35,325 nt of DNA from a virus (taxonomy: Duplodnaviria; Heunggongvirae; Uroviricota; Caudoviricetes). The position numbers and the translations under genes are program-made. Shown here in pieces: positions 3,340 through 34,410 of this stretch (position 1 is its first letter; each line of letters starts with the position of its first letter). The stretch lies in IMG/VR virus record IMGVR_UViG_2671180296_000012. The stretch is one strand, 5' to 3'. Under the pieces are notes generated by a model that worked only from the letters and a program-made list of their open reading frames with translations, did no database searches and had not been told where the DNA came from.

Positions 3340-3600
3340 ATGACCAAAGACCATGCACAAGGTGTATTTATCCGTTTTATTGATTTTCGCGGTGAACTGT
3401 TATTACGTGCATCCGCTATTGACGGAGTGACTCCGGCGGGTAAAAACGGAGCCGACGAAGCCACTTACGTTTATCTGAACGGCACGCGACTGCTTGTGGA
3501 ACTTCCGTACCAGACCGTACGAGAAATCATTAGCGAAGCTGAAAAGGCACGCCAAGTTAATGGCGATGAACCCTATATCGAAATTATTTGTATGGATTAA
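3340..3600 (+). CDS. hypothetical early protein
   Basis: In-frame ATG at 3340 within the track ORF 3226-3600, chosen to avoid overlap with the preceding gene; 86 aa. Confidence 0.5.
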   Translation: MTKDHAQGVFIRFIDFRGELLLRASAIDGVTPAGKNGADEATYVYLNGTRLLVELPYQTVREIISEAEKARQVNGDEPYIEIICMD

Positions 3601-3638
3601 GAAGCTGAAATACAGAAAGCAGATTAAAGGGCGTTGTG

Positions 3639-3881
3639 ATGGGCAAAGAATATAAAACTCTCATTAACAAAGCACTTGAGCGTTTTTATTTTCGCTTAAG
3701 TGCATCAGGCACTCATGCTGAACGTGCGGCCCGTGACTCATTGACCAGAGCAATCCGAAGTCTGTATGACGTGGCTTTTTACGCTGATGATCTGGATGCA
3801 CTTAACGAACTTTCCGAGCTGATCTGTGCCGCAGAATGCGGGGAACATATTGAACCGTATAAGCTGGGAAATATCGCATGA
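3639..3881 (+). CDS. hypothetical early protein
   Basis: 80-aa ORF; ATG at 3639 immediately follows the GTG at 3636. Confidence 0.5.
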   Translation: MGKEYKTLINKALERFYFRLSASGTHAERAARDSLTRAIRSLYDVAFYADDLDALNELSELICAAECGEHIEPYKLGNIA

Positions 3882-3991
3882 GTATATTTATCTCATGGCT
3901 TGTTCTGATTATTTCGGTGGTCTGCGCCATTGGGATTATGCGAATTATTAATTCAGTAAAAAAGATTGAACGCTTTTTCACTGAAGAATAA
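3878..3991 (+). CDS. possible 37-aa hydrophobic membrane peptide
   Basis: ATG overlapping the upstream stop (ATGA); translation MSIFISWLVLIISVVCAIGIMRIINSVKKIERFFTEE; below the track's length cut-off. Confidence 0.3.
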   Translation: MSIFISWLVLIISVVCAIGIMRIINSVKKIERFFTEE

Positions 3992-4077
3992 CCGCGCAAA
4001 TAAGACCCCAGGTTAAATAAGAAAATGTGAAAACAAGCCGCATTCGCGGAGGTATTCGCACACGCCAAGGAGGCGTA

Positions 4078-4281
4078 ATGGCAATTAAGCATTTTCCTGT
4101 CGTTCGTTTCACCTCCAGAGGACGTGAATACGAAGTTGACGAACGCCTGATTACCACAATCGACAAACACCGTTCAGAAAAGGATGCACATCACATCTAT
4201 CTCACTGACGGCACTTACTTCTGCGCCACCAACGTGGTGCAGGTGAATCTTATCAGACAGGTACAGGAGTCACGCAGATGA
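4078..4281 (+). CDS. hypothetical early protein
   Basis: ATG at 4078 is preceded by AAGGAGG at good spacing; 67 aa (MAIKHFPVVRF...). The track ORF begins upstream at 4027. Confidence 0.5.
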   Translation: MAIKHFPVVRFTSRGREYEVDERLITTIDKHRSEKDAHHIYLTDGTYFCATNVVQVNLIRQVQESRR

Positions 4282-4523
4282 CCATTCTGGACTACATCGC
4301 TGCCAATCCGGGTTGTAGCGGTGGAGAAATCGCCGCAGCACTGAATACACCAACCACAACCATTAATGCGGAGCTACGCCGTCTCTGGCGCAGCGGTTCA
4401 GTCATAAGAAAAGAGCGCAAAACAGGCGGTCGCTTTTCCTATCAGGTAAACCCGATGCCGTTTGGGTGTAGCAACCCACTAACCCAGATGTTCAACCAGC
4501 TACTGAGGGAAATCAGAGCATGA
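4278..4523 (+). CDS. small winged-helix-like DNA-binding protein
   Basis: 81 aa; start overlaps the upstream stop; MTILDYIAANPGCSGGEIAAALNTPTTTINAELRRLWRSG looks like a winged-helix fold. Confidence 0.5.
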   Translation: MTILDYIAANPGCSGGEIAAALNTPTTTINAELRRLWRSGSVIRKERKTGGRFSYQVNPMPFGCSNPLTQMFNQLLREIRA

Positions 4524-7934: not shown

Positions 7935-8894
7935 ATGAAAATTTGTATCGACGACGGCTCCACCAACATCAAGCTGGCATGGACTGAGAACGGCGAACGC
8001 CGCAACGCCATCAGCCCGAACAGCTTCAAGTCGGAATGGTCTGCGCCGTTCGGTGGCACGCAGCCCGCGAACTACATGCTTGATGGCGTGCGCTATGGCT
8101 TTGATCCGGTCAGCGATCGCTTTGTCCAGACGACCGACACGCAGTACCAGTACAGCGATGTGAATGTAGTTGCCATTCATCACGCACTGGTCAAATCAGG
8201 CATCACACCACAGGAAGTGGATGTGGTTGTCACCCTACCACTGAGCGAGTATTTCGACACAAACGCACAGCCGGACATGGCCAACATCAACCGCAAAAAA
8301 GCGAACGTCATGCGCCCGGCGGAGTACCAGAACGGCGAAGCATTCACTATCCGTAACGTACGGGTTATGCCTGAATCCATTCCGGCTGGCTTTAAAGCAC
8401 TGGCTGACATGAGTCCGTTTGAATCCCTGCTGATTGTGGATTTAGGCGGAACCACGCTGGATGTGGCAAAGGTTCAGGGACAACTGGCAGGTATCAGCCA
8501 GGTGTTTTGCGATCCACACGTAGGCGTTTCCCTGATGGCCGATGCCGTACTGTCGGTGATGGCCACTAACGGTATGCGTACCAGTCACCACATCGCCAAT
8601 ACCATTATCGAACATCGCCATGATGAAGCCTGGCTGCGCCAGCACATCCACAATGACGCGCATTACGACAGCCTGATGGCGGTTATTCGTGAAAAGGAAG
8701 AAACACTGAAACAACGCGTGATCCGCGCGCTGGCGGGTTTTTCGGGTTACGGGCGGGTGATGGTTGTCGGTGGAGGGGCGGAGATTGTGGCACCCGCTAT
8801 CCGCGAAGCCTGCGGAGTTAATGCGACTTTCATCGCGGACGGGGTGCCACAGTTTGCTCTGGTTAATGGGCTGTACGCAATGGACAAGGAGTAA
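7935..8894 (+). CDS. parM: actin-like segregation ATPase ParM/StbA homolog
   Basis: 319 aa; strong resemblance to plasmid R1 ParM as recalled (MKICIDDGSTNIKLAW, ISPNSFK, YSDVNVVAIHHAL, VMPESIPAG, LLIVDLGGTTLDV, VMVVGGGAE). Confidence 0.85.
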   Translation: MKICIDDGSTNIKLAWTENGERRNAISPNSFKSEWSAPFGGTQPANYMLDGVRYGFDPVSDRFVQTTDTQYQYSDVNVVAIHHALVKSGITPQEVDVVVTLPLSEYFDTNAQPDMANINRKKANVMRPAEYQNGEAFTIRNVRVMPESIPAGFKALADMSPFESLLIVDLGGTTLDVAKVQGQLAGISQVFCDPHVGVSLMADAVLSVMATNGMRTSHHIANTIIEHRHDEAWLRQHIHNDAHYDSLMAVIREKEETLKQRVIRALAGFSGYGRVMVVGGGAEIVAPAIREACGVNATFIADGVPQFALVNGLYAMDKE

Positions 8895-8898
8895 ACCA

Positions 8899-9210
8899 AT
8901 GACGACACCAACCAGACGGATAAGTTTCTATCTGAAGCCCGCCGCCGTCAAGAACGAAGGCGAAGCATGTGCCTGGCTGGACAGCCTTACGCCAGAAGCC
9001 CGCAAAAGCGGCCAACGCGTGGCTTTTTTGGCCGGGCTGGCACTTCTGAAAATGAATCCAGCAGAGGCTTACCGACTGGCTGCATGGGCTGACGATGAGG
9101 CGTTATCGGTGACACAAACCAGGACAGAACACCCCGTGTCACAGCCAGTACCAACCGCACAGATAACCAGTCAGATGGCAGGGAATATCCGGGCATTATT
9201 TCCTGAATGA
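8899..9210 (+). CDS. parR: ParR-like ribbon-helix-helix centromere-binding protein
   Basis: 103 aa from the ATG at 8899 (AAGGAG upstream), directly after parM as in R1; ISFYLKP, FLAGLALL and NIRALFPE resemble R1 ParR from memory. Confidence 0.6.
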   Translation: MTTPTRRISFYLKPAAVKNEGEACAWLDSLTPEARKSGQRVAFLAGLALLKMNPAEAYRLAAWADDEALSVTQTRTEHPVSQPVPTAQITSQMAGNIRALFPE

Positions 9211-9270: not shown

Positions 9271-9795
9271 ATGAAAAAATACGAATACATGCTAATGAAA
9301 GAAGCACTGCGGGCTGGTCTGGCTCCCTGTCCTGTATCCGTAGAGGCTGTTGTTGGGAACACGATTTTCCGAACGCTGCGAAATCGCGTATCCGTGAAGA
9401 TGATTCATCAACCACCCAAATCTACCAGCATGATCTATCTGCCGCTGCCCGAGGCTATCAAACTTATGCGTTCGCTGAAATTTGCGATTTGGATGCAGAC
9501 ACAACTCAACAAAGCGGTGCAAAACACCTTCGTTAAGAAACTGATGCCGGAGCTTGCTGCCAGATGTGCAAAATGTACCAGACCCGCACTTCAATTTGAT
9601 CTGTCATTGATTCAACAAGCTACGGAGGCAGAACTATACCGCCTGTCACCTCTCCATGATGCTCACACGGAAGCCTCAGAAATGTTCCGGCTCATGTTTC
9701 AATTTAATTTTGCCGTTCGACGCACACACGTTCAGGTCAATCGCATGATGCAGGCGCAGGAAGAGCTGGCGCAACACAAAGGAGGCAACCAGTGA
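9271..9795 (+). CDS. hypothetical protein (accessory, A-Q hotspot)
   Basis: 174-aa ORF with GAGG upstream; stop overlaps the start of the next gene (GTGA). Confidence 0.55.
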   Translation: MKKYEYMLMKEALRAGLAPCPVSVEAVVGNTIFRTLRNRVSVKMIHQPPKSTSMIYLPLPEAIKLMRSLKFAIWMQTQLNKAVQNTFVKKLMPELAARCAKCTRPALQFDLSLIQQATEAELYRLSPLHDAHTEASEMFRLMFQFNFAVRRTHVQVNRMMQAQEELAQHKGGNQ

Positions 9796-10382
9796 GCAAG
9801 ATTGACTATCAGGCATTACGCGAACGTTATTCACCTGTGCCAGTACCGAAATGCCATATTTGCGGCGAGGAAATGTCAATTCAGCGAATATCTGGAGCAC
9901 AGGTTGTTTATGCCTGCTCCGGTTATGGTGATGATGGAGATTTCAAAATTGGTCGAACTCTTGCCGACGAACATTATGAAAAATCACGCGTAACAGTGTT
10001 GGATGTCGGGGATCCTGAAGTATTGGCGCTACTTGATTGGCTGGAAACTAAAGACAACCGAATCGCTGAACTGGAAAAAATCGCCACTGACTATGCACTT
10101 AAATTCCAGAAAGCACAGGACGCATTAAAGTACGCCGCTTTGCTGCATAGCCGAACGGCGCAACAAACCAATAATTTTGCAGTATTGCTTCCGGACATAA
10201 GCGAATATTTCATTAATAACGTATTTCAGCCCTTGCGATACGAGCGGGATGTTGAAAGAGCCATCATAAAGGCTGGCGGAAAAGCATTGTGGCAGGAGAA
10301 ACACGAGGACAGAACGCATCAGTCCTGCGATGTAAATTGTGGATGGTTTAGCCCACTGACGACAGATAAAAATAACACCTGA
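9792..10382 (+). CDS. hypothetical protein with N-terminal Cys cluster (accessory, A-Q hotspot)
   Basis: 196-aa ORF, GTG start overlapping upstream stop; CHICGEEM...YAC near N-terminus and SCDVNCGW near C-terminus. Confidence 0.55.
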   Translation: MSKIDYQALRERYSPVPVPKCHICGEEMSIQRISGAQVVYACSGYGDDGDFKIGRTLADEHYEKSRVTVLDVGDPEVLALLDWLETKDNRIAELEKIATDYALKFQKAQDALKYAALLHSRTAQQTNNFAVLLPDISEYFINNVFQPLRYERDVERAIIKAGGKALWQEKHEDRTHQSCDVNCGWFSPLTTDKNNT

Positions 10383-10872: not shown

Positions 10873-11919
10873 TCAGGATGTGGGCTGGGTATCTAACAGT
10901 GCGTAAGGGTTAAAGCGGATCACCTCTTCGCCAAGCCAGTCATTGATGTGCTTCATGGCCTCCATGACGGGCATCAGCTCGTTAATTGCGTAAACCCGCG
11001 CGGCCTTCTCCACATCACCAAACGCACTTTTTTCGCCCGGCATCGCCCCCATCAGTTGCGGCGGAACGCGGTGCGCAGCCAGCACATCATCACGGGATGC
11101 CGCCTTAACATTCATGAACTCATCTTTTGCGGTGATCTGCTGGAACGGCAAAATTTGCACCCCCTCTTTGCCCCCGTTGGGCGCATGAATGAGCACGTTT
11201 TTAAACGCACCACCACCACGTGCCCCCTGTAGCGTTTCTTTCAGGGAGTCCATGCTTTCGCGGTTTACCTGCGCTGCACCGATGTAGATGATGCACCCGG
11301 CGTGGGATCCGTTGTCGTAGTACAGTTTTCTGAACATGTCCGCCGAATGAGAAAGGCTGGCCGAGAGTAATGCGCCAAGATATTCCGGCATGCCGTAGAT
11401 TTCCTGGTTAATATCCGGATTCATCAGGTGGCACACTTTGCCAGGACGAAACTGAAACGCGTCCTTGCCATCCTGCACATACCACCATGATTCAAGATCG
11501 CTTCCGCGTCGCATGTATTTCGCCAGTGCGTGCCGTAATTTAAGCGGTTCGCCGAGCATATTGCTCCGAAGCTCAAGGAATGCGTTACCGAACACAAACC
11601 AGTCCAGCGCCAGCGCCGAGAAATCCTGCCGGGAAAGCAGCGGGTGCGGGATGTAGCAACCGAGTAATACATTGCGCTTAAAGTAAAGCGCAGACTGATG
11701 CCAGGACGTTTGCCGGGCTGCTCTTGCCAGACCGTACCAGTCCACCGGGGTTTCATACCACCGCCCGTTATCAGCACAGTACATATTGTCCAGCAGGTCA
11801 TGCCCGGTCAGGCGATAAGGACCATCAAATGTGAATGCACTGAGCGATGATTCTTTCCTGAGCGCATCAGCGAGATCAATGCGTGAACTCATGCGCACTT
11901 TTTTATTTTTTCTGCTCAT
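10873..11919 (-). CDS. Q: portal protein gpQ
   Basis: 348 aa; leftward, adjacent to the terminase large subunit as in P2. Confidence 0.9.
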   Translation of the reverse strand: MSRKNKKVRMSSRIDLADALRKESSLSAFTFDGPYRLTGHDLLDNMYCADNGRWYETPVDWYGLARAARQTSWHQSALYFKRNVLLGCYIPHPLLSRQDFSALALDWFVFGNAFLELRSNMLGEPLKLRHALAKYMRRGSDLESWWYVQDGKDAFQFRPGKVCHLMNPDINQEIYGMPEYLGALLSASLSHSADMFRKLYYDNGSHAGCIIYIGAAQVNRESMDSLKETLQGARGGGAFKNVLIHAPNGGKEGVQILPFQQITAKDEFMNVKAASRDDVLAAHRVPPQLMGAMPGEKSAFGDVEKAARVYAINELMPVMEAMKHINDWLGEEVIRFNPYALLDTQPTS

Positions 11920-13670
11920 CAGAACTCCATAACCGTGAAACGCTCGTTTTCTCCTTCGCCGCCAATCGGTTCGTTAATGACAGCAAGCATGGTTGCCCAC
12001 GCAAGGTCGCCGTGGCTGATCCCCCTCGCGCGGTCCGTTTCGTAAGTGATAAAGCCGCCCGGTGTTTTCACCTTACGCACGGCGTTAAAGGCCGCGACCA
12101 GCTCGCGTTCGGCGCGATCGTATTCCCACCGCCCGGCACGCATTATTTGCAGCATTTTCAGTACCAGCGACCGTTTTGATGACAGCGTGAAGGTGTACGG
12201 AATAGCAGCAGGGAAAAACCGTTTCACTATCTGATAAACAGCCTCCCCGTTCCCGCCCGTCACATCAATGCCGATGTGTTCCACGTTGTAGCGACACGTG
12301 AACTCTTCAATGACTCTGGCCTGTTCTTCAAACTCCAGCCCCTGAACGCGTCGCGTCTCCACCGTTCGAAAACGGCCACCAGGAACAGCCGGAGGAACCA
12401 CCACGGACACAGCGCCGCTGTCGCCGTTGCCACTGCTGCCGTTTGCGTCATACCCAATCCATACCGGACGATTCCCCATCGGGCGGGGAGCAAAAGGTTT
12501 CCAGTCTTTCCAGTCGTCGTATCCGTCAACACCGCAGCCAATCAGGATATTCAGGTTAAATGCCGATTCCCCTTCGCGGACAAACTCACACATATAGAGA
12601 TTGCGGAACTCGTCTTCGGTGTTTTCATCACGAATTTCGTCAATATCGGTGTGTTTCCAGCCGTGATTAACCACATCTTCCAGCGTGACAATTTGCCGCC
12701 ACGTCCGGTCAGGGCAGATAAGCCCGTTATGCAGCGTTTTCCAGTCCACAGAAAAACGCTGACGTTTATGCGTGGCCTTTTTCTCGTTCCAGCGGTCGCC
12801 GTTCCAGTAGGCGTATGCCTCGTGCGTTTCGGTGGATGGCGTGGAGAAGTAGGTGCGCCGCAGTCCGCTGAGGGTTGCCATAGCGCCAGCCACCTTGCGC
12901 AGTTCAGCAAAGCGACTGACCCAGAAAAATTCATCAAAATAAAAATTGCCCGTATAGGACTGTGCCGACGCAGCAGAAGTGCCGAGAAAATGCAGTTCTG
13001 CGCCGTTGGAGAGGATGATTTTATCGCCCCCTTTCAGCTCCACATCAACTTCAGCCGCGGCCTTCTGAATAATGCTTTTAAACTGGAACGCCTGACGACG
13101 CGACGCAGACAAAAAAATCTGGTTACGCTGGTAAGGCTGCGCCACATCGTCACGCAGCGCCATCAGCAGTGCTTCCTGTGCAAAATACCAGGTCGCCCCA
13201 ATCTGTCGGGATTTCAGGATCATCCTGTTACGTATCCCGGCTTCCCTGCAAAGGGTCAGGGAGTCAAACCAGCCCCGCTGATGCCACTCCAGCCTGCTGA
13301 TGATTTTTTCCCGCAGTGCGGCAATCTGTTCCGGCGTGAAATGATTTTTGAGTTTTTTCGCCCGGCCTTTCTTTCCTGTGGCCGTCGCATCCGGCTGGCC
13401 ATCATGCAGTTTTTTAAGCTGCCGGGTCAGCAGGTCTATTTCCTTGAAGTCACCACCTGTTTTATTCTGTTTTTCAGTGAGCTGGATGAGGCGCGCATCG
13501 ATGGACTGCGTGACACGCTGCACGGGTGGCGTTTCATCCCACTGGTCGCGTTTTTTCCACGCATAAATCGTGTTCGGGTTTATTCCCATCAGACGTGATA
13601 TTTCTGCGGGCGGATAACCCTGCCAGTAAAGTTGTCGCGCACGCTGGCGCACAAAAGCGTCCTGAATCAT
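11919..13670 (-). CDS. P: terminase large (ATPase) subunit gpP
   Basis: 583 aa; N-terminus MIQDAFVRQRARQLYWQGYPPAEISRLMGINPNTIYAWKKRDQWDE; position next to Q. Confidence 0.9.
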   Translation of the reverse strand: MIQDAFVRQRARQLYWQGYPPAEISRLMGINPNTIYAWKKRDQWDETPPVQRVTQSIDARLIQLTEKQNKTGGDFKEIDLLTRQLKKLHDGQPDATATGKKGRAKKLKNHFTPEQIAALREKIISRLEWHQRGWFDSLTLCREAGIRNRMILKSRQIGATWYFAQEALLMALRDDVAQPYQRNQIFLSASRRQAFQFKSIIQKAAAEVDVELKGGDKIILSNGAELHFLGTSAASAQSYTGNFYFDEFFWVSRFAELRKVAGAMATLSGLRRTYFSTPSTETHEAYAYWNGDRWNEKKATHKRQRFSVDWKTLHNGLICPDRTWRQIVTLEDVVNHGWKHTDIDEIRDENTEDEFRNLYMCEFVREGESAFNLNILIGCGVDGYDDWKDWKPFAPRPMGNRPVWIGYDANGSSGNGDSGAVSVVVPPAVPGGRFRTVETRRVQGLEFEEQARVIEEFTCRYNVEHIGIDVTGGNGEAVYQIVKRFFPAAIPYTFTLSSKRSLVLKMLQIMRAGRWEYDRAERELVAAFNAVRKVKTPGGFITYETDRARGISHGDLAWATMLAVINEPIGGEGENERFTVMEF

Positions 13671-13824
13671 TGCTCCCCCTGAGTAATTACAGGAAGATTA
13701 CCCGCGCGCGAAACCGTTCTCCTTAACCCCCTGTTCTGGCCGTTTTCTTACAACAAAAGCCCTTTGTATCAGCCTGTTACGCTTTGCCATCATGACTGAA
13801 GAACCAGTCAGAGGGGCAAAAACT

Positions 13825-14661
13825 ATGGCTAATGAAAAAAAGACATCCCGCAAAAAGTTTCGCGTGGCTGTCTCCGGATCAACTGTTGATGGCCGTGAAA
13901 TCAGTCCGGTGCATCTGCGTGAAGCCGCCGAGAACTTCAACCCGGATGTTTACGCTGCCCGCGTGAACGTTGAGCACTATCTCTCGCCATGCCCGTCAAG
14001 CGAATTTTCCGCAATGGGCGATGTCACCGCACTGAGTACGGAAGACATTACGGAAGGTCCGCTGGCCGGACGTACTGCGCTGTATGCAGAAATCGAACCG
14101 ACCGAGCGCATGAAGCAGCTTGTCGCTGACGGCAAGAAAATCTATTCCAGTATCGAACTGCACCCGCAGTTCTCCGTTAACGGGCGCGCCTATCTGGTCG
14201 GGCTGGCGATGACCGACACCCCGGCAAGCCTGGGCACTGAGCGCCTGAAATTCACGGCACAGCAACGTCAGGCGGTGATGACGTTCAACAGTATCCAGGG
14301 TGAAGCGCCGCTTATCTCCGAAGCCATCGAGTCTGAAATCATCGAAATGGCAGAACAACGCCAGGAAGAAGGCACCCAGTGGTTTAACCGCGTAATGGGG
14401 ATTATTGGCCGTGGCCGCAAAGCGGATGACGCCAGTTTTTCCCGCATTCAGGAAGCAGTGGAAGGCGTCGCAACGTCACAGGCCGACATTATCGACCGTT
14501 TTAATGCACTGGAAGCCCGCCATAAGCAGGACCGTCAGAAAATCACGTCACTGACCACAGAGCTGACAGCACTGAAGGAAAAACTGCGCACGCAGGACGG
14601 CGATCCGCAGAACCGGTTCACCGCAACGGGCGCAGCCTCCGATCAACTGGCTGACTTCTGA
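13825..14661 (+). CDS. O: capsid scaffolding protein gpO
   Basis: ATG at 13825 with GAGGGG upstream, in frame within track ORF 13792-14661; resembles P2 gpO (FRVAVSGSTVDGREI, YLVGLAMTDTPASLGTE). Confidence 0.85.
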   Translation: MANEKKTSRKKFRVAVSGSTVDGREISPVHLREAAENFNPDVYAARVNVEHYLSPCPSSEFSAMGDVTALSTEDITEGPLAGRTALYAEIEPTERMKQLVADGKKIYSSIELHPQFSVNGRAYLVGLAMTDTPASLGTERLKFTAQQRQAVMTFNSIQGEAPLISEAIESEIIEMAEQRQEEGTQWFNRVMGIIGRGRKADDASFSRIQEAVEGVATSQADIIDRFNALEARHKQDRQKITSLTTELTALKEKLRTQDGDPQNRFTATGAASDQLADF

Positions 14662-18094: not shown

Positions 18095-18498
18095 AGCTCT
18101 GGCCCACGCTTGGCGTCGCTTTCCTTCTGATTGCCGGATGGGGAACATCCATGCGTCTGTCGTGGTCGCTGGGCCGGGAGAACGCCAGAAACGAAGCGCA
18201 GGCCAGCACCCTGAAAAGTACCGCCGACACCCTGAATATCATCAGCGCCGGGGTACAGGATATGCAGCAGGTGCTGGCGCAACTCCGCGTGGAAAATCAG
18301 CAACGCAATCAGGACGGAGAGGTAAGACGTGAACAGCTACGCAACGATATTGCAAAAGATGAATGCGCCCACGCTTTGCCTGACGCTCGTTTTACTGACA
18401 GGCTGCGCAGGCACGCAGAACGCGCCACTGCCAGCGCCGTCAGTCCGGCTTATACCGCAGACGCTGACCATACCGGTAACGCCTCCCCCCTTCCCTGA
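18091..18498 (+). CDS. i-spanin (Rz/LysB-like)
   Basis: ATG at 18091 overlapping the endolysin stop; N-terminal TM segment (LWPTLGVAFLLIAGWG) followed by a charged coiled-coil-like region. Confidence 0.6.
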   Translation: MKLWPTLGVAFLLIAGWGTSMRLSWSLGRENARNEAQASTLKSTADTLNIISAGVQDMQQVLAQLRVENQQRNQDGEVRREQLRNDIAKDECAHALPDARFTDRLRRHAERATASAVSPAYTADADHTGNASPLP

Positions 18499-18649
18499 TA
18501 CTCCCACATGGGGAAATCTCGGTATATGGGGCGACCGCCTTCTGGATGCACTGGAAACCTGTAACGCGGATAAACGGGCCATTGAATTACAGGAACAGCG
18601 CAGGCTGCAACGACTGAACAACGAGGATAACAACCATGCTGAAAACTGA
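18359..18649 (+). CDS. o-spanin lipoprotein (Rz1/LysC-like), overlapping the i-spanin in another frame
   Basis: Lipobox LLTGC after a short signal sequence (MNAPTLCLTLVLLTGCAG), proline-rich; starts inside and extends beyond the i-spanin. Confidence 0.6.
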   Translation: MNAPTLCLTLVLLTGCAGTQNAPLPAPSVRLIPQTLTIPVTPPPFPDTPTWGNLGIWGDRLLDALETCNADKRAIELQEQRRLQRLNNEDNNHAEN

Positions 18650-19103
18650 TTCCCTGCGTGAAGCCATGACCCGTTCATGCCGATGGTGTCAGGCCAACCC
18701 GGAAAAATTCACCATTTTCGTGGAGAGCGGCAACATTGAAACGACAGGAGAAACCCCATCGTTTGTTTACCGCTATCAGATGGTGATGTTTGTCATGGAT
18801 TACGCCGGGGAGCTGGACGACCTCACGCTGCCGCTGCTGGCGTGGTTATCCGAAAATCAGCCACAGTTGTTGCTCAACCCTGAGCGTAATCAGGACATCA
18901 AATTCTCCGCCGTTATCAATGACGATGACAGCGCCGATCTCCTGTTTACGCTCCCCCTGCGGGAACGCGTTCGCATCACGCGCAGCAGTCAGGGCACACC
19001 GCAGGCAGAACACCTGCCGGAGCCAAAACCCCGCCTGCCATCTTCCGAAGGCGACTGGTCGCATGTATTCCAGGATGTGACGTGGGGTGAAAGCGATGGA
19101 TAA
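18636..19103 (+). CDS. R: tail completion protein gpR
   Basis: 155 aa; MLKTDSLREAMTR..., PLLAWLSENQPQLL resembles P2 gpR. Confidence 0.85.
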   Translation: MLKTDSLREAMTRSCRWCQANPEKFTIFVESGNIETTGETPSFVYRYQMVMFVMDYAGELDDLTLPLLAWLSENQPQLLLNPERNQDIKFSAVINDDDSADLLFTLPLRERVRITRSSQGTPQAEHLPEPKPRLPSSEGDWSHVFQDVTWGESDG

Positions 19104-19731
19104 GGCATTCACCCGCGTGGATGAAACCTTTGAGGCCATCCGCGACAGCCTGAATCAGCAGGCCATCAATAACATCGCCAGAAAGCTGGCACAGGATTTA
19201 CGCCGCGCCCAGCAGGCGCGTATCCGGTCACAGAAAGCGCCGGACGGGACTGCATGGACACCACGCAGACGCCGCGTAACCCGGATACAGGAGCGCATTC
19301 GCTTTATCTGGAATAACGAAGCACGCACGCTGAAAAACTGGCATCACGACACGGGGAAATACGGGCGAACCATTACCGGGTGGGATGAGGATAAAAACAA
19401 TATCCGCACGTTTTACCGGGATGACATCGACCGTTTTCTGGAAATACGCACCCGGCGCATCAACCAGGACAGCACCAGGCGCGTCCCCATGTTCGTAAAA
19501 CTGCGCACCGCCCGCTACCTGAAAGCCCGTGCAGATGCTTCCGGTGTGACGGTGGGTTACAGCGGCGTGGCCGCACGTATTGCACGCGTTCATCAGTTCG
19601 GTGAGCGTGATCAGGTTGCGCCGGGCATTTTCACCGATTACCCGGTACGTGAGCTGCTGGGTATCAGCCAGGCAGATGAGCGCCTGATTTATAACACGGT
19701 GCTGGGCCGGATTGCGGAGGCTGTACGGTGA
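19096..19731 (+). CDS. S: tail completion / virion morphogenesis protein (gpS position)
   Basis: ATG at 19096 with GGGGTG upstream (track ORF starts at GTG 19087); about 211 aa between R and V. Confidence 0.7.
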   Translation: MDKAFTRVDETFEAIRDSLNQQAINNIARKLAQDLRRAQQARIRSQKAPDGTAWTPRRRRVTRIQERIRFIWNNEARTLKNWHHDTGKYGRTITGWDEDKNNIRTFYRDDIDRFLEIRTRRINQDSTRRVPMFVKLRTARYLKARADASGVTVGYSGVAARIARVHQFGERDQVAPGIFTDYPVRELLGISQADERLIYNTVLGRIAEAVR

Positions 19732-19808
19732 GCGCAGAACTCATGCGACTGCTGAGCAATATCATCCGCACCGGGATCATCTCTGAAGTTGATGAGAAGT
19801 CCTAGCGC

Positions 19809-20309
19809 GTGCGCGTTCGCAGCGGCGAACTGGAAACAGGCTGGCTGCGCTGGAACACCACGCGCGCGGGAGCCTTCAATGTGTGGCTGCCGCCATCACC
19901 AGGCGAACAGGTGGTAATTGCCTGCATTGGCGGCAACCCGGAAACCGCCATGATAATTGGCAGCCTGTGGAGTGATGCCAATCCGGCCCCCGGCAAAAGC
20001 CTGAAAGAAATCGTGGTCAGCGCGCCGGATGGCGCGGTGTTCCGCTACGACGCGGACGCAGGCGCACTGAGCGCCAGCGGCATGAAAACAGCCAGCCTGC
20101 AGGCATCCGTCAGCGTGACACTGAACACGCCCGTCGTGGAATGCACAGACCTTCTGAGAACGGCGACGCTTGACGTCACAAAAGGGGGAAAGATGAGCGG
20201 CAATATCACGCACAGCGGCGGCAATTTCACCTCAAACGGCATCACAGTGCATACGCATAAACACGGTGGCGTTAAAGGTGGCAGCGATTCGACAGGAGGC
20301 CCGCAGTGA
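19809..20309 (+). CDS. V: baseplate spike/assembly protein gpV; intact ORF as drawn, but conserved N-terminal coding sequence continues upstream to GTG 19728 across an in-frame TAG at 19803-19805
   Basis: 166-aa ORF resembling P2 gpV (WLRW, PSPGEQVVI, HTHKHGGV). The 25 codons upstream in the same frame (VSAELMRLLSNIIRTGIISEVDEKS) resemble the gpV N-terminus and start at a GTGA overlap with gene S. Confidence 0.7.
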   Translation: MRVRSGELETGWLRWNTTRAGAFNVWLPPSPGEQVVIACIGGNPETAMIIGSLWSDANPAPGKSLKEIVVSAPDGAVFRYDADAGALSASGMKTASLQASVSVTLNTPVVECTDLLRTATLDVTKGGKMSGNITHSGGNFTSNGITVHTHKHGGVKGGSDSTGGPQ

Positions 20310-20656
20310 CAACCCGCTACACAGGAATGAACCCGGACGGAACGGGAAACCTGAACGATATGGAGCACCTGAAACAGTCAGTCAGGGACATCCTGACCAC
20401 CCCGCTGGCAAGCCGGGTTATGCGACGGGAATATGGCAGCCTTGTGCCTGATTTGATTGACGAACCCATGAATAACACCACGCGTCTGCAATGCATGAGT
20501 GCTGCCGTGATTGCGCTGACACGATGGGAACCCCGCATTGCCCTGGACGCCATCGACGTTGTCTGGAAGGCAGGAGGCCGCGCCGGGGTGACGCTGTCGG
20601 GCACTGTCATGCAGACCATGCAGAATGTTGAATTAACCATCACGCTGAGAGAGTAA
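20306..20656 (+). CDS. W: baseplate assembly protein gpW
   Basis: 116 aa; GTG start overlapping the V stop; MTTRYTGMN...RVMRREYGSL resembles P2 gpW. Confidence 0.85.
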   Translation: MTTRYTGMNPDGTGNLNDMEHLKQSVRDILTTPLASRVMRREYGSLVPDLIDEPMNNTTRLQCMSAAVIALTRWEPRIALDAIDVVWKAGGRAGVTLSGTVMQTMQNVELTITLRE

Positions 20657-21556: not shown

Positions 21557-22157
21557 TTCACTGTTACCACCATCAGCCAGCAATTTCATGCGTTGTGCCG
21601 AAGCCGTCGGAACACGCATTACAGACATTCCGGTAGACCTCAACACGCTGTGGTCGCCGGACACCTGCCCGGCGCATCTGCTGCCTTATCTCGCCTGGGC
21701 GTTTTCCGTTGACCGCTGGGATCGCAACTGGCCGGAAGAGACAAAGCGACAGGTGATTCGTGATGCCTGGCTGATACACCGACACAAAGGGACCATCAGC
21801 GCACTGCGAAGAGCCGTGGAGCCTCTCGGCTACCTGATTGAAGTAAAGGAGTGGTGGCAACTCAACGAGGAGCCGGGAACATTTCGCATTGTTGTCGGAG
21901 TACTTGATCAGGGCATCACCGATGAAATGTATCAGGAACTTGAGCGCCTTATTGCGGATGCAAAACCAGTAAGTCGCCATCTGACGGGGCTGGCGATCAG
22001 CCTGAGTGTGAACGGAAAGATTTTCGTTGGTACGGGATGCTATCACGGCGATGCCCTGACGGTTTATCCCTACACCCCGGAGTCCATTATTGTCGAAGGG
22101 GATTATTTCTCTGCCCCGGCCATTCATTTAATTGATAATCTGAGAGTAAACGCATGA
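21549..22157 (+). CDS. I: baseplate/tail protein gpI
   Basis: ATG at 21549 overlapping the J stop; MSNSLLPPSAS..., LWSPDTCPAHLLPYLAWAFSVDRWD, LIADAKPVSRHL closely resemble P2 gpI. Confidence 0.85.
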   Translation: MSNSLLPPSASNFMRCAEAVGTRITDIPVDLNTLWSPDTCPAHLLPYLAWAFSVDRWDRNWPEETKRQVIRDAWLIHRHKGTISALRRAVEPLGYLIEVKEWWQLNEEPGTFRIVVGVLDQGITDEMYQELERLIADAKPVSRHLTGLAISLSVNGKIFVGTGCYHGDALTVYPYTPESIIVEGDYFSAPAIHLIDNLRVNA

Positions 22158-23767
22158 CAGTGAAATACTACGCCATTCTGACTAATCAGGGCGCGGCACG
22201 ACTGGCTAACGCGACGATGCTCGGCAGTAAGCTGAATCTGACGCAAATGGCCGTTGGTGATGCAAATGGTGTGTTACCAACACCAGACCCTGCACAAACA
22301 AAACTGATTAACCAGAAACGCATTGCACCGCTGAATCTTCTGAGTGTTGACCCTAACAATCAGAGCCAGATTATTGCGGAGCAAATCATCCCTGAAAACG
22401 AGGGAGGATTCTGGATCCGTGAGATTGGTCTTTATGATGATGAAGGTGTACTCATTGCGGTGGCAAACTGCCCGGAAACGTACAAACCGCAGTTGCAGGA
22501 AGGCAGTGGACGCACCCAGACTATCCGCATGATTCTGGTTGTCACGAACACCGAAGCCATCACGCTGAAAATCGACCCGTCTGTGGTTCTGGCAACCCGC
22601 AAATATGTGGATGATAAAATCTCAGAGCACGAACAGTCACGACGTCACCCGGACGCCTCGCTGACCGTAAAAGGTTTTACTCAGTTAAGCAGTGCAATTA
22701 ACAGTGAATCAGAAACACTGGCCGCAACACCGAAAGCGGTTAAGGCTGCATATGACCTGGCTAACGGGAAATATACCGCCCAGAACGCCACCACTACACA
22801 AAAAGGAATTGTTCAGCTCAGTAGCGCCACGAACAGCACGTCTGAAACGCTGGCAGCGACACCAAAATCTGTTAAGGCGGTAATGGATGAAACGAACAAG
22901 AAAGCACCATTAAACAGCCCGGCACTGACCGGAACGCCAACAACACCAACAGCGCCACAGGGGACTAATGATACCCAGATCGCAAGCACAGCTTTCGTTA
23001 TGGCCGCGATTACCGCACTTGTAGATTCGTCACCTGATGCACTGAACACGCTGAACGAACTGGCTGCGGCGCTGGGCAATGACCCGAATTTTGCGACCAC
23101 CATGACTAACGCGCTTGCGGGTAAGCAACCGAAGGATGCCACCCTGACGGCGCTGGCGGAGCTTGCTACATCAGCAGATAAACTCCCATATTTTACAGGG
23201 GCAGATCGTGCCGCGTTAACCGCGTTGACGAGTGTTGGACGTGCCATTCTTGGTAAAACCAGCACTCAGGGAGTTCTTGATTACCTTGGTTTGGGAGAAG
23301 GCTCTGCATTACCTGTTGGTGTCCCTGTTCCGTGGCCTTCAGCCACTCCGCCAACAGGCTGGCTGAAATGCAACGGAGCAGCTTTTTCTGCTGAAGAATA
23401 CCCGGAACTGGCAAAGGCTTACCCGACAAATAAATTGCCAGATTTACGTGGTGAGTTTATTCGTGGCTGGGATGACGGGCGTGGTATTGATGCTGGACGT
23501 GCTTTATTGAGCCTTCAGGCTGGGATGCTGGAAAAACACCGCCATATTGTTGTTGCCAATGATGGTTACGACACAAAAGATGAATGGGAACTGGCTACGA
23601 TTTTCAAAAAAACATACACACAAGGACGGGGACTTGATGCCACAAATACAGGAGGGAGTCTGATCCCATCACCGACACTTCATTCACGAGGGAGTATCGG
23701 TAATACTGGCGGGAGTGAGACCCGTCCACGAAATATTGCATTTAACTTTATCGTGAGGGCTGCATAA
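22154..23767 (+). CDS. H: tail fibre protein gpH (conserved N-terminal part plus currently expressed variable C-terminus)
   Basis: 537 aa; conserved N-terminus; C-terminal motif PVPWPSATPPTGWLKCNGAAF typical of tail-fibre receptor-binding tips; contains the left crossover site. Confidence 0.9.
   Translation: MTVKYYAILTNQGAARLANATMLGSKLNLTQMAVGDANGVLPTPDPAQTKLINQKRIAPLNLLSVDPNNQSQIIAEQIIPENEGGFWIREIGLYDDEGVLIAVANCPETYKPQLQEGSGRTQTIRMILVVTNTEAITLKIDPSVVLATRKYVDDKISEHEQSRRHPDASLTVKGFTQLSSAINSESETLAATPKAVKAAYDLANGKYTAQNATTTQKGIVQLSSATNSTSETLAATPKSVKAVMDETNKKAPLNSPALTGTPTTPTAPQGTNDTQIASTAFVMAAITALVDSSPDALNTLNELAAALGNDPNFATTMTNALAGKQPKDATLTALAELATSADKLPYFTGADRAALTALTSVGRAILGKTSTQGVLDYLGLGEGSALPVGVPVPWPSATPPTGWLKCNGAAFSAEEYPELAKAYPTNKLPDLRGEFIRGWDDGRGIDAGRALLSLQAGMLEKHRHIVVANDGYDTKDEWELATIFKKTYTQGRGLDATNTGGSLIPSPTLHSRGSIGNTGGSETRPRNIAFNFIVRAA
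22670..22905 (+). repeat. tandem protein-level repeats inside gpH (two copies of about 35 aa)
   Basis: KGFTQLSSAINSESETLAATPKAVKAAYDLANGKY and KGIVQLSSATNSTSETLAATPKSVKAVMDETNKK, read from the translation. Confidence 0.6.
23274..23299. promoter_or_regulatory. left crossover site for DNA invertase (hix/gix-like, TTCTTGATTACC-TT-GGTTTGGGAGAA) inside gpH
   Basis: 26-bp site with a 2-bp core; partner site in inverted orientation at 25140-25165 with complementary core (AA). Confidence 0.6.
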
Positions 23768-24375
23768 TGGATAACGCAGTATTAAATAGCGAGTTTATTG
23801 CCACGAAGGCGGGGAATATTACCGTCTATAACTACGATGGTGAAACTCGGGAATATATTTCTGCATCAACTGAATATCTTGCAGTGGGTGTCGGTATTCC
23901 AGCATATTCCTGTTTAGACGCTCCTGGTACATATAAGGCTGGTTATACAATTTGCCGTTCTGTAGATTTAAATTCATGGGAATATGTGCCAGACCATCGC
24001 GGTGAAATCGTCTATAACACCGAAACGGGAGATGCCAAAGAAATCACAGCACCGGGTGATTACCCCGAAAATACAACCACTATCGCCCCATTAACGCCAT
24101 ACGATAAATGGGATGGTGAGAAATGGGTGACCGATACTGAGGCACAGCATAGCGCCGCAGTAGACGCGGCAGAAGCACAGCGTCAGTCACTGATTGATAC
24201 TGCAATGGCTTCCATTAGTCTGATTCAGCTGAAATTACAGGCCGGACGGAATCTGACGCAGTCAGAAACCAGCCGACTTAACACGGTGTTGGATTACATT
24301 GACGCGGTGACGGCAACAGATACCAGCACCGCGCCGGATGTTATCTGGCCTGAACTGCCGGAGACTGCACAATAA
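23767..24375 (+). CDS. G: tail fibre assembly chaperone gpG (for the currently expressed fibre tip)
   Basis: 202-aa ORF immediately after gpH with ATGA overlap. Confidence 0.8.
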   Translation: MDNAVLNSEFIATKAGNITVYNYDGETREYISASTEYLAVGVGIPAYSCLDAPGTYKAGYTICRSVDLNSWEYVPDHRGEIVYNTETGDAKEITAPGDYPENTTTIAPLTPYDKWDGEKWVTDTEAQHSAAVDAAEAQRQSLIDTAMASISLIQLKLQAGRNLTQSETSRLNTVLDYIDAVTATDTSTAPDVIWPELPETAQ

Positions 24376-24544
24376 ACTCACCATCAATATATAAATCCCC
24401 CTGCTGTGTGTCAGCAGGGCATTCTTTCCATATTAATGATGGATGGAATCTTCCTTCAGGATTAATTTCCGTTATCTCTTCTACTTTATTTTCTTCAATT
24501 CTTGCCCACATATGAACCTCACCAGTAAATATAAACTGCGCCAT
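24341..24544 (-). CDS. putative alternative tail fibre assembly chaperone (start uncertain; track ORF extends to 24769)
   Basis: Minus-strand ORF inside the invertible segment; ATG at 24544 (MAQFIF...) overlaps the stop of the alternative fibre cassette; upstream in-frame starts would overlap that cassette by 170-250 nt. Confidence 0.35.
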   Translation of the reverse strand: MAQFIFTGEVHMWARIEENKVEEITEINPEGRFHPSLIWKECPADTQQGDLYIDGEFIVQSPAVQAR

Positions 24545-25152
24545 CTGCTCCGGCACCCGACTGACCCGTTGATGAATTAGGACATAATCCAGCACCGCCA
24601 CCTCCAGGCCCAACTGCTGATACCGCTTTTCCGTTAGCTGTATCTCTGAATGAACCTGCTCCTCCGGGGCCACCACCAGAACCACCATTACCAGCTCCCG
24701 ATGCGGCAGAAGCAATGGAACCTGGAGAACCTGGCCCAAGCGATGTATTAATTGTTCCCCCGACACCAACTGCGCCTAACCCTCCGGAAGGCTGGCCTCC
24801 GCTATAGCCTCCGGAAGCTGACATGTAAGTCCCGAAACTGCTCGAGCCACCATTTTTACCGTTTACAGAAATACCAGACACAGGCGCACCACCGGCACCA
24901 ACCGTAATCGAAACACTGTTTATACCAGTTAAATCTACCAGCCCCTCAGCAACTCCGCCCCCACCACCTCCTCCGCCACATGTAACGGCTGAAGCGGTTG
25001 TTGAACCTATCCCTCCTGACGCACCGCCACCAATAACTTTGACGTAACATTTTCTTCCATTGCGCAACTCTTCAGGAACAGTCCAGCTTGTTACTCCAGC
25101 CGTTGTGAAGGCAACCAGATTTCTGAACCCAAATGAACCTTCTCTCAAACCA
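24519..25152 (-). CDS. silent alternative tail-fibre C-terminal cassette (glycine-rich), no start codon of its own
   Basis: Minus-strand ORF reading into the right crossover site. Manual inversion between the two sites joins it in frame to gpH, giving ...DYLGLREGSFGFRNLVAFTTAGVTSWTVPEE..., which matches the translated minus-strand ORF. Confidence 0.65.
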
Positions 25153-25165
25153 ACGTTTAAGAAAA
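25140..25165. promoter_or_regulatory. right crossover site for DNA invertase (TTCTCTCAAACC-AA-CGTTTAAGAAAA)
   Basis: Resembles hix/gix/cix sites as recalled; inverted relative to the site at 23274-23299; lies just upstream of the invertase gene. Confidence 0.6.
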
Positions 25166-25220
25166 TGCAGAGATTACGGCTAACTGGCATCATCCCCGGT
25201 TTTTATTCAGGGGATCCATC

Positions 25221-25820
25221 ATGCTTATTGGCTATGTCCGCGTATCAACAAATGACCAGAATACAGAATTGCAGCGTAACGCGCTGGAGTGCGCAGGATG
25301 TGAACTGATTTTTGAAGATAAAATCAGCGGAACGAAATCAGCCAGACCGGGATTGAAAAAACTGCTCAGAACGCTATCAGAAGGAGATACGCTGGTTGTC
25401 TGGAAGCTGGACAGACTGGGCAGAAGTATGAAACACCTGATCACGCTTATTGAGGAATTGCGGGAAAAAGGTGTTAATTTCCGTAGTCTGACGGACAGCA
25501 TTGACACATCAACACCCATGGGGCGTTTCTTTTTTCACGTCATGGGAGCTTTAGCCGAAATGGAACGTGAATTAATTGTAGAGCGTACACTGGCCGGGCT
25601 GGCAGCAGCACGCGCACAAGGACGCATTGGCGGACGTCGCCCGAAGTTGACAAAAGAACAACACGAGCAAATAGCGAGGCTGATTAAAAACGGTCATGAC
25701 AGGAAACAACTGGCGATCATTTACGACATCGGCATATCGACGATTTATCGTTATCACCCTGTAGGCGATATACAGGCTGAAGAAACAACCAGGCAGATTC
25801 AGGAAAATGAAAACCGCTAA
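25221..25820 (+). CDS. serine DNA invertase (Hin/Gin/Cin/Pin family)
   Basis: 199 aa; N-terminal catalytic region GYVRVSTNDQ with conserved serine, and a C-terminal HTH (GISTIYRY). Confidence 0.9.
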   Translation: MLIGYVRVSTNDQNTELQRNALECAGCELIFEDKISGTKSARPGLKKLLRTLSEGDTLVVWKLDRLGRSMKHLITLIEELREKGVNFRSLTDSIDTSTPMGRFFFHVMGALAEMERELIVERTLAGLAAARAQGRIGGRRPKLTKEQHEQIARLIKNGHDRKQLAIIYDIGISTIYRYHPVGDIQAEETTRQIQENENR

Positions 25821-33172: not shown

Positions 33173-33313
33173 ATGTCGCAAAAATCGCTTACGGCCATCA
33201 CGTTCTGCGTGACGGTAATCCTCATCATCTGGATGCTGCACGGTTCGCTGTGTGAAATACGGATGAGCTTCTGGGGAGCGGAGTTTGCGGCGTTCTTACA
33301 GTGTAAGCAGTAA
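33173..33313 (+). CDS. Hok/Gef-family type I toxin (small membrane peptide)
   Basis: 46-aa ORF below the track cut-off; AAAGGAG 8 nt upstream; MSQKSLTAITFCVTVILIIWMLHGSLCEIRMSFWGAEFAAFLQCKQ has a TM segment followed by SLCEIR and EFAAF, the Hok signature; followed by stem-loops and a terminator. Confidence 0.65.
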   Translation: MSQKSLTAITFCVTVILIIWMLHGSLCEIRMSFWGAEFAAFLQCKQ

Positions 33314-33502: not shown

Positions 33503-33784
33503 TTACTCAGCATTCTCCTGCTTCCATTGCCGGATCATTTCATCGGTAACATCACTTTCATAACATACCACGTCATACCCTCCAGTACGGCTATATGCAC
33601 TGCGTCCACCACATCTACTACCATTCCTTGCATGATTATACGGACACGCACAATTGCCTGGATAAGATTCAATGGACTCTTTAATTATTTCTTTCTTGAT
33701 CTGAGCATCTGACTTTCCTGTTGCTGCATACCCACTAAAAGATACCAAACAAAGGCAGATTGCCATTAATAAACCACATCGCAT
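33503..33784 (-). CDS. small secreted Cys-rich protein in AT-rich DNA (start uncertain; track ORF extends to 33898)
   Basis: Internal Met gives MRCGLLMAICLCLVSFSGYAATGK..., a signal-peptide-like N-terminus, then a Cys-rich region (NCACPYNHARNGSRCGG); surrounding DNA is markedly AT-rich relative to the prophage. Confidence 0.4.
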   Translation of the reverse strand: MRCGLLMAICLCLVSFSGYAATGKSDAQIKKEIIKESIESYPGNCACPYNHARNGSRCGGRSAYSRTGGYDVVCYESDVTDEMIRQWKQENAE

Positions 33785-34078
33785 ACCGATACACTCTATT
33801 ACTAACCAATCATAGCCCACATCATAAAATCGAGATGAGGAGTACAACACCTTTAACAAGAAGGTGCCATCACGATAATATGCCGTGCAATTCATCAAAA
33901 AAAAGATCTATATCAAAGAGATAGAGTTATTATCAGTGCTGCAGACATCAGCATTCGAGGCAGCAGAAAGACAGTAAATCTAACGAATTTGTCTTTTTCT
34001 CAGGATGTTGTCAGATTAAAAAAGATAGAGTAGCGCAGACACCTTTTGGTGGATGGTAGGAGGAAAAATGAAGTTGAG

Positions 34079-34253: not shown

Positions 34254-34280
34254 TACAAAAAAACCACCCGAAGGTGGTTT
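34254..34280 (-). terminator. rho-independent terminator of the glyW-cysT-leuZ tRNA operon
   Basis: Hairpin AAACCACC-cgaa-GGTGGTTT with a 7-nt A-run upstream on the plus strand (T-run on the minus strand), about 45 bp downstream of tRNA-Leu. Confidence 0.6.
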
Positions 34281-34323
34281 CACGACACTGCTTATTGCTT
34301 TGATTTTATTCTTATCTTTCCCA

Positions 34324-34410
34324 TGGTACCCGGAGCGGGACTTGAACCCGCACAGCGCGAACGCCGAGGGATTTTAAATCCCTTGTGTCTACCGATTCCA
34401 CCATCCGGGC
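34324..34410 (-). tRNA. leuZ: tRNA-Leu (anticodon UAA)
   Basis: Reverse complement reads GCCCGGATGGTGGAATCGGTAGACACAAGGGATTTAAAATCCC...GGGTACCA; 87 nt with long variable arm and encoded CCA. Confidence 0.9.

Follow-up and report, generated by a model that had tools for sequence, protein, structure and literature searches.

Gene V, which codes for the central spike of the baseplate (gpV), is broken by an early in-frame amber codon in a P2-like prophage of the P88 type (Xuanwuvirus, Peduoviridae). The reading we favour, with a probability of roughly 0.7, is that of a real, recent and lineage-private nonsense mutation, which arose through deamination at a Dcm site and leaves the prophage defective. 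Judged from its sequence, gene V is effectively a pseudogene here, a disrupted copy of the gene and no functional member. The event is of an ordinary, well-understood kind and raises no new biological question. For annotation, it means that a prophage which looks complete, and would be called "intact" by prophage finders, is to be scored as probably defective, and that the 166-aa open reading frame (ORF) beyond the stop is not to be entered as an ordinary product of the baseplate genes. Additionally, it would represent a clean natural case of a 5-methylcytosine (5mC) transition at a Dcm site making an amber codon. The window is the whole 35-kb stretch of DNA that was analysed (35,325 nucleotides), and all coordinates are window positions; the features of the locus are collected in Table 1.

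The reading frame was found as the preliminary description had given it, in all of its coordinates. The frame opens with GTG at 19728-19730, overlapping the TGA of gene S at 19729-19731, and runs through sense codons that translate as VSAELMRLLSNIIRTGIISEVDEKS, before meeting TAG at 19803-19805, which is codon 26. It then continues without a shift as RVRVRSGELETGWLRW... up to TGA at 20307-20309. Against P88 gpV (193 aa), the translation aligns from end to end in one frame, with 96% identity (E 5e-124) and one stop, and the 25 codons ahead of the stop are identical to P88. Because both flanks of the stop align in this way, the interruption is not a chance break between ORFs. The next in-frame start, GTG 19809, lies 3 nt beyond the TAG, and the ORF finder lists only the piece that begins there; an exact look-up of this 166-aa product returned no gene on record. 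The GTG start of the following gene, W, overlaps the stop of V and has its own AGGAGG (anti-SD duplex -10.3 kcal/mol).

Table 1. Features of the S-V-W locus around the early stop (window positions)
Feature	Position	Strand	Evidence and remarks
Gene S (tail completion / virion morphogenesis)	19096..19731	+	Pfam Phage_tail_S, E 1.3e-27; 99.5% identity to P88 S over 211 aa, no stops
Shine-Dalgarno GGAGG of V	19716..19720	+	7 nt upstream of GTG 19728; anti-SD duplex -9.5 kcal/mol
Gene V (baseplate central spike, gpV)	19728..20309	+	193 codons (194 in all to TGA), broken at codon 26; translation and P88 gpV alignment
N-terminal fragment of V	19728..19805	+	25 sense codons and TAG; the sole product predicted for the native start
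CCTAG, former Dcm site	19801..19805	.	CCTGG in every aligned relative; bottom strand now CTAGG
Private G-to-A transition (TGG Trp26 to TAG amber)	19804..19804	+	G in 107/107 aligned relatives
Remaining V frame from GTG 19809	19809..20309	+	166 codons; from the ORF list; without residues 1-27
Second private V change, GAC to AAC (Asp133Asn)	20124..20124	+	G in 88/88 and 102/102 relatives; downstream of the stop
Gene W (gp25-like wedge protein), intact	20306..20656	+	Pfam GPW_gp25; 100% identity to P88 W

The assignment to baseplate gene V, proposed earlier from the letters alone, is upheld by domain and structure matches. The records of relatives label the 582-nt equivalent of 19728-20309 as baseplate assembly protein V; those of P88 and PhiR44_2 begin it with the same GTG, and RefSeq E. 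coli uses an ATG five codons downstream. Pfam finds the OB domain (PF04717) of P88 gpV at residues 14-81, covering profile positions 1-75 (E 2.3e-15); in the ORF after the stop of the window, the match covers profile positions 16-75 only. The same ORF (19809-20306) carries the Phage_spike (PF18715, E 3.1e-23) and Apex (PF18946, E 6.9e-07) domains, and the HTHKH iron-binding apex motif, the HxH iron cage, is present. P88 gpV also matches the solved full-length structure of P2 gpV (3QR8, E 8.6e-51), and the genes S, V, W, J, I, H and G are collinear with those of P88. The spike under the P2 gpD hub is a trimer of gpV (bioRxiv 10.64898/2026.09.14.750843), joined to the tube and baseplate by its OB domain (bioRxiv 10.1101/2023.02.25.529910). 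The stop falls inside this N-terminal OB domain. An AlphaFold2 monomer model of the spike reached a mean pLDDT of 52, too poor to tell which strand is lost.

Among known systems, P2 gpV (3QR8; PF04717, PF18715 and PF18946) and P88 gpV (YP_009113078.1) share with the window the position within S-V-W-J-I-H-G, the three-domain architecture and the HTHKH apex. The V product of the window is 96% identical to that of P88 and about 50% identical to that of P2, and differs from both in that its frame is interrupted at codon 26. P2 V possesses its own promoter after orf30 and a terminator, whereas V in the window overlaps S, as in P88.

The interruption comes down to a single nucleotide. The region of about 1.4 kb around the stop shares 97-99% identity with more than 1,000 complete E. 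coli genomes, and equally with the phages P88, PhiR44_2, 520873 and others. Codon 26 is TGG in P88, PhiR44_2 and E. coli E2348/69, and G19804A is the sole difference at this codon. Position 19804 is G in 88/88 full-length related V genes, none of which contains an internal stop. In a protein alignment of 106 homologues, 104 sequences have Trp in the codon-26 column; the other 2, P2 among them, have Gly. The glycine that the preliminary description gives for P2 gpV at the column of the TAG was thus correct, while the closer family has tryptophan (104/106); on these alignments, the ancestral residue in the lineage is Trp (TGG). The exact 61-mer centred on TAG was found at 0 of 1,155 homologous places in 1,035 complete E. 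coli genomes, where the best places were all one mismatch off. Scanned for the exact pattern with TAG, collections of genome, viral and metagenome contigs gave no match; with TGG, the same pattern is present in 102 viral contigs.

Private substitutions were counted over the 9,080 sites that are comparable in at least 30 relatives. There are 7 of them, including 3 synonymous changes, 2 missense changes outside V and 2 changes in V; one of the missense changes outside V falls in an unconfirmed ORF (18329-18649). With just 7 private substitutions in 9,080 sites, the mutation is judged to be recent. The two private changes within the 582 nt of V (W26* and D133N) compare with 0.45 expected, which is not significant (Poisson P about 0.07), and relaxed selection after the stop was set aside on this ground. 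D133N is compatible with relaxed constraint or with chance.

The genes dcm and vsr lie beyond the window, and dcm is present in many E. coli. The sequence context of the change is that of a Dcm site. G19804 pairs with the internal C, the methylated position, of CCAGG on the bottom strand, and the step from CCAGG to CTAGG is a C-to-T change at the internal C of one strand of an ancestral CCWGG. Since the ancestral CCTGG is a Dcm site and G19804 stands opposite the methylated C, the change has the form of a classic product of 5mC deamination, and we infer this origin for G19804A from the sequence context. The 9,080 comparable sites contain 16 Dcm motifs, or 32 5mC-paired positions, and the chance that at least one of 7 private substitutions would fall on such a position is about 2.4%. 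CTWGG/CCWGG is known as a product of 5mC deamination, and the T:G mismatch is corrected by very-short-patch repair (PMC2715241). In the proposed course of events, the bottom-strand 5mC at 19804 would deaminate, changing CCAGG to CTAGG, and the T:G mismatch would escape very-short-patch repair and become fixed as G19804A, turning the TGG of Trp26 into an amber TAG.

A well-known precedent is found in lacI of E. coli, where Coulondre and Miller reportedly observed in 1978 that spontaneous amber mutations come from 5mC deamination hotspots at Dcm sites. There, as here, a C-to-T change at the second C of CCWGG creates an amber codon. The two cases differ in strand: at the lacI hotspots it is the coding strand in which CAG becomes TAG, whereas in V the methylated C belongs to the template strand and the codon therefore goes from TGG to TAG.

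The same Dcm context gives weight to another explanation, a base-calling or assembly error in which the true codon is TGG and V is intact. The change sits exactly at the 5mC-paired position of CCTGG, about 70% of the consensus errors of older ONT basecallers were in the Dcm motifs CCAGG/CCTGG (PMC6591954), and modification-induced assembly errors are of the C2T and G2A types (PMC11610603). The fact that the TAG allele is seen nowhere else, neither in the E. coli genomes nor in the contig collections, would also fit an error. However, 39/43 consensus Dcm motifs in the window are intact, and the three that differ besides this one show shared polymorphisms of another kind, none of them a change of the G19804A type, which argues against systematic miscalling at Dcm sites. 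Likewise, about 35 conserved genes contain no frameshift and no other stop, and the absence of frameshifts speaks against long-read errors of the homopolymer type. Current models read CCWGG with an accuracy of about 99% (PMC11610603), and genuine 5mC deamination predicts the identical change. An error is unlikely in our estimate. Because nanopore errors mimic them, Dcm-site changes such as this one call for read-level confirmation.

The state of the remaining element was assessed by searching the window with all 53 P88 proteins in tblastn. Full length and free of stops and frameshifts are the portal, terminase, scaffold and capsid genes, L, X, the lysis genes, R, S and W, and likewise J, U, T, E, E+E', FII, FI and D. 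The gene ogr is intact, and I and H are divergent from P88 and align only partially. General decay of the prophage was not seen, as the other conserved virion genes shared with P88 are uninterrupted over the aligned parts, and a nonsense mutation in an otherwise intact element, one of the options offered in the preliminary description, is the one favoured here. Two further apparent stops were rejected: that in repA came from a spurious tail alignment and marks no lesion, and that in a small ORF at 3598 is a C-terminal length variant, a normal gene in the annotation of E. coli MFDS1019527. Prophage decay through the inactivation of a single virion gene is a familiar pattern, likewise with one lesion in an element that is otherwise complete, and nothing distinctive is seen here.

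The consequences for spike production can be predicted from what is known of P2. Ribosomes would load at the strong native site (GGAGG, 7 nt from GTG 19728) and release a peptide of 25 residues. The full spike, with its OB domain docking under the gpD hub, its beta-helix and its iron-binding apex, would then go unmade, and the baseplate and tail would be left incomplete. The prophage would still be maintained, and would probably still replicate and lyse, yielding no infectious particles in a non-suppressing host. We infer the loss of gpV function and the defective phenotype from P2 genetics and from the position of the stop in the domain. P88 itself, with TGG at V codon 26, is an inducible, plaque-forming phage (PMC5285337). 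P2 vir1 bearing Vam1 (Gln9 to amber) does not grow without a suppressor and grows on a supD host (bioRxiv 10.1101/2023.02.25.529910). Vam1 is, like the window allele, an early UAG in V, and no growth without an amber suppressor is the phenotype to be expected; it differs in being engineered at P2 codon 9, whereas the amber of the window replaces Trp26 in a prophage of the P88 type and seems to be spontaneous.

It is improbable that the stop is real and gpV function is nonetheless kept, fully or in part, through reinitiation at GTG 19809, a low level of UAG readthrough or an amber-suppressor tRNA of the host. Some features would suit such a rescue: GTG 19809 is in frame and close behind the TAG, the 166 codons downstream are still nearly identical to those of functional relatives, the amber in P2 V is rescued by supD, and one gpV trimer per virion suffices. 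The anti-SD duplex at GTG 19809 is, however, weak, at -2.7 kcal/mol versus -9.5 at the native start. The restart product would also be without OB-profile positions 1-15, presumably the first OB strand, a part that no homologue lacks, the pyocin spike 4S37 included, and the early P2 amber fails without a suppressor. The three tRNAs of the window, all host genes, are Leu(taa), Cys(gca) and Gly(gcc), and none has a CUA anticodon. The preservation of the downstream sequence is to be expected anyway if the mutation is recent. Quite improbable, in turn, is a living prophage with a true amber allele, to which reinitiation at GTG 19809 or leaky readthrough of UAG supplies gpV; if this were so, the element would be an attenuated temperate phage of low burst, needing one gpV trimer per virion, and the first OB strand of gpV would be dispensable.

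Programmed recoding, or a V gene that is naturally split or shorter in this lineage, can hardly be credited, since nothing beyond the presence of the stop speaks for it, while the stop is missing in every relative examined (0/1,155 places, 0/88 V genes and none in the three contig collections), the equivalent of 19809 is not the start of any homologue, and the RNA beyond the stop is no more stably folded than shuffled sequences (z -0.51). The suppressed or readthrough codon raised in the preliminary description is thus disfavoured, the stop being private, the window tRNAs being without a CUA anticodon and the downstream RNA structure being ordinary, and programmed readthrough was rejected because the stop is not conserved among relatives. 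A natural downstream start, a finding that had been named as able to overturn the nonsense reading, was not encountered: all of the 120 best database homologues keep the N-terminal segment, and none starts at the 19809-equivalent position. Almost all database homologues are 193 aa long with the N-terminus kept, and the nine shorter than 180 aa (157-173 aa) still carry the N-terminal IIRTGII...W segment.

Under the favoured reading of a nonsense mutation, effects on the genes downstream of V may also be considered. No C-rich, G-poor tract was found downstream of the stop, and W has a strong Shine-Dalgarno sequence of its own; for these reasons, a Rho-dependent polar effect on W-J-I-H-G is at most possible and is not indicated.

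The prophage occupies the interval between yecA and leuZ of an E. coli-type chromosome, inserted at the 3' end of the tRNA-Leu gene leuZ. The host flank in the window is 99.7% identical to E. coli, and the closest complete E. coli genome reaches 98-99.9% identity, by segment. A stretch of 125 bp (34254-34378) overlaps the 3' part of the tRNA-Leu gene (34324-34410), and the same 125 bp recur exactly in E. coli MFDS1019527, past the integrase end of the homologous prophage there. This repeat is probably the att core, and it places the prophage at the leuZ 3' end, between yecA and the glyW-cysT-leuZ-pgsA cluster. The window ends at the integrase stop codon, and the second att copy falls outside it. 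E. coli MFDS1019527 (NZ_CP169309.1) is the closest relative with a complete genome, with its prophage at the same yecA/leuZ site and V intact. In that locus, at 3431-4284 and 10968-13923 of its own coordinates, a gpD-type gene is shortened and several pieces of tail-fibre genes are marked as pseudogenes. The copies at the yecA/leuZ site carry different lesions and seem to decay independently of one another.

Several other parts of the window merit description. The integration and immunity module (1-2455) is unlike that of P88: the integrase is just 39% identical to that of P88, and tblastn found no match for P88 C and cox in the window. A 134-aa HTH protein is encoded in the immunity module on the minus strand (2051-2455). 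Between its gene and int lie two cargo ORFs, a DUF2511 protein (1008-1355) and a 216-aa PHROG 5825 protein (1385-2035), neither of which has a PADLOC match. At 7935-9207, a ParM-type actin-like segregation ATPase and a partition protein, with 99% and 96% identity to P88, form a plasmid-style partition module in a chromosomal prophage, as in P88. Between the partition genes and the portal gene is a 174-aa ORF (9271-9792) without a match in Pfam, PHROGs or PADLOC, adjoining an Ead/Ea22-like gene (9792-10382).

In the tail-fibre region (22154-25820), H (537 aa) matches P88 H in its N-terminal part only, with 63% identity. Behind H lie G (a Caudo_TAP chaperone), ORFs on the opposite strand (24341-25193) and a recombinase/invertase (25221-25820), and this gene order is consistent with an invertible host-range segment. 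Near the other end of the element, a Hok/Gef-type toxin ORF (33173-33313), 100% identical to that of P88, adjoins ogr, and a 131-aa ORF (33503-33898; PHROG 27544, with weak matches to "membrane associated" morons) lies between the phage end and tRNA-Leu.
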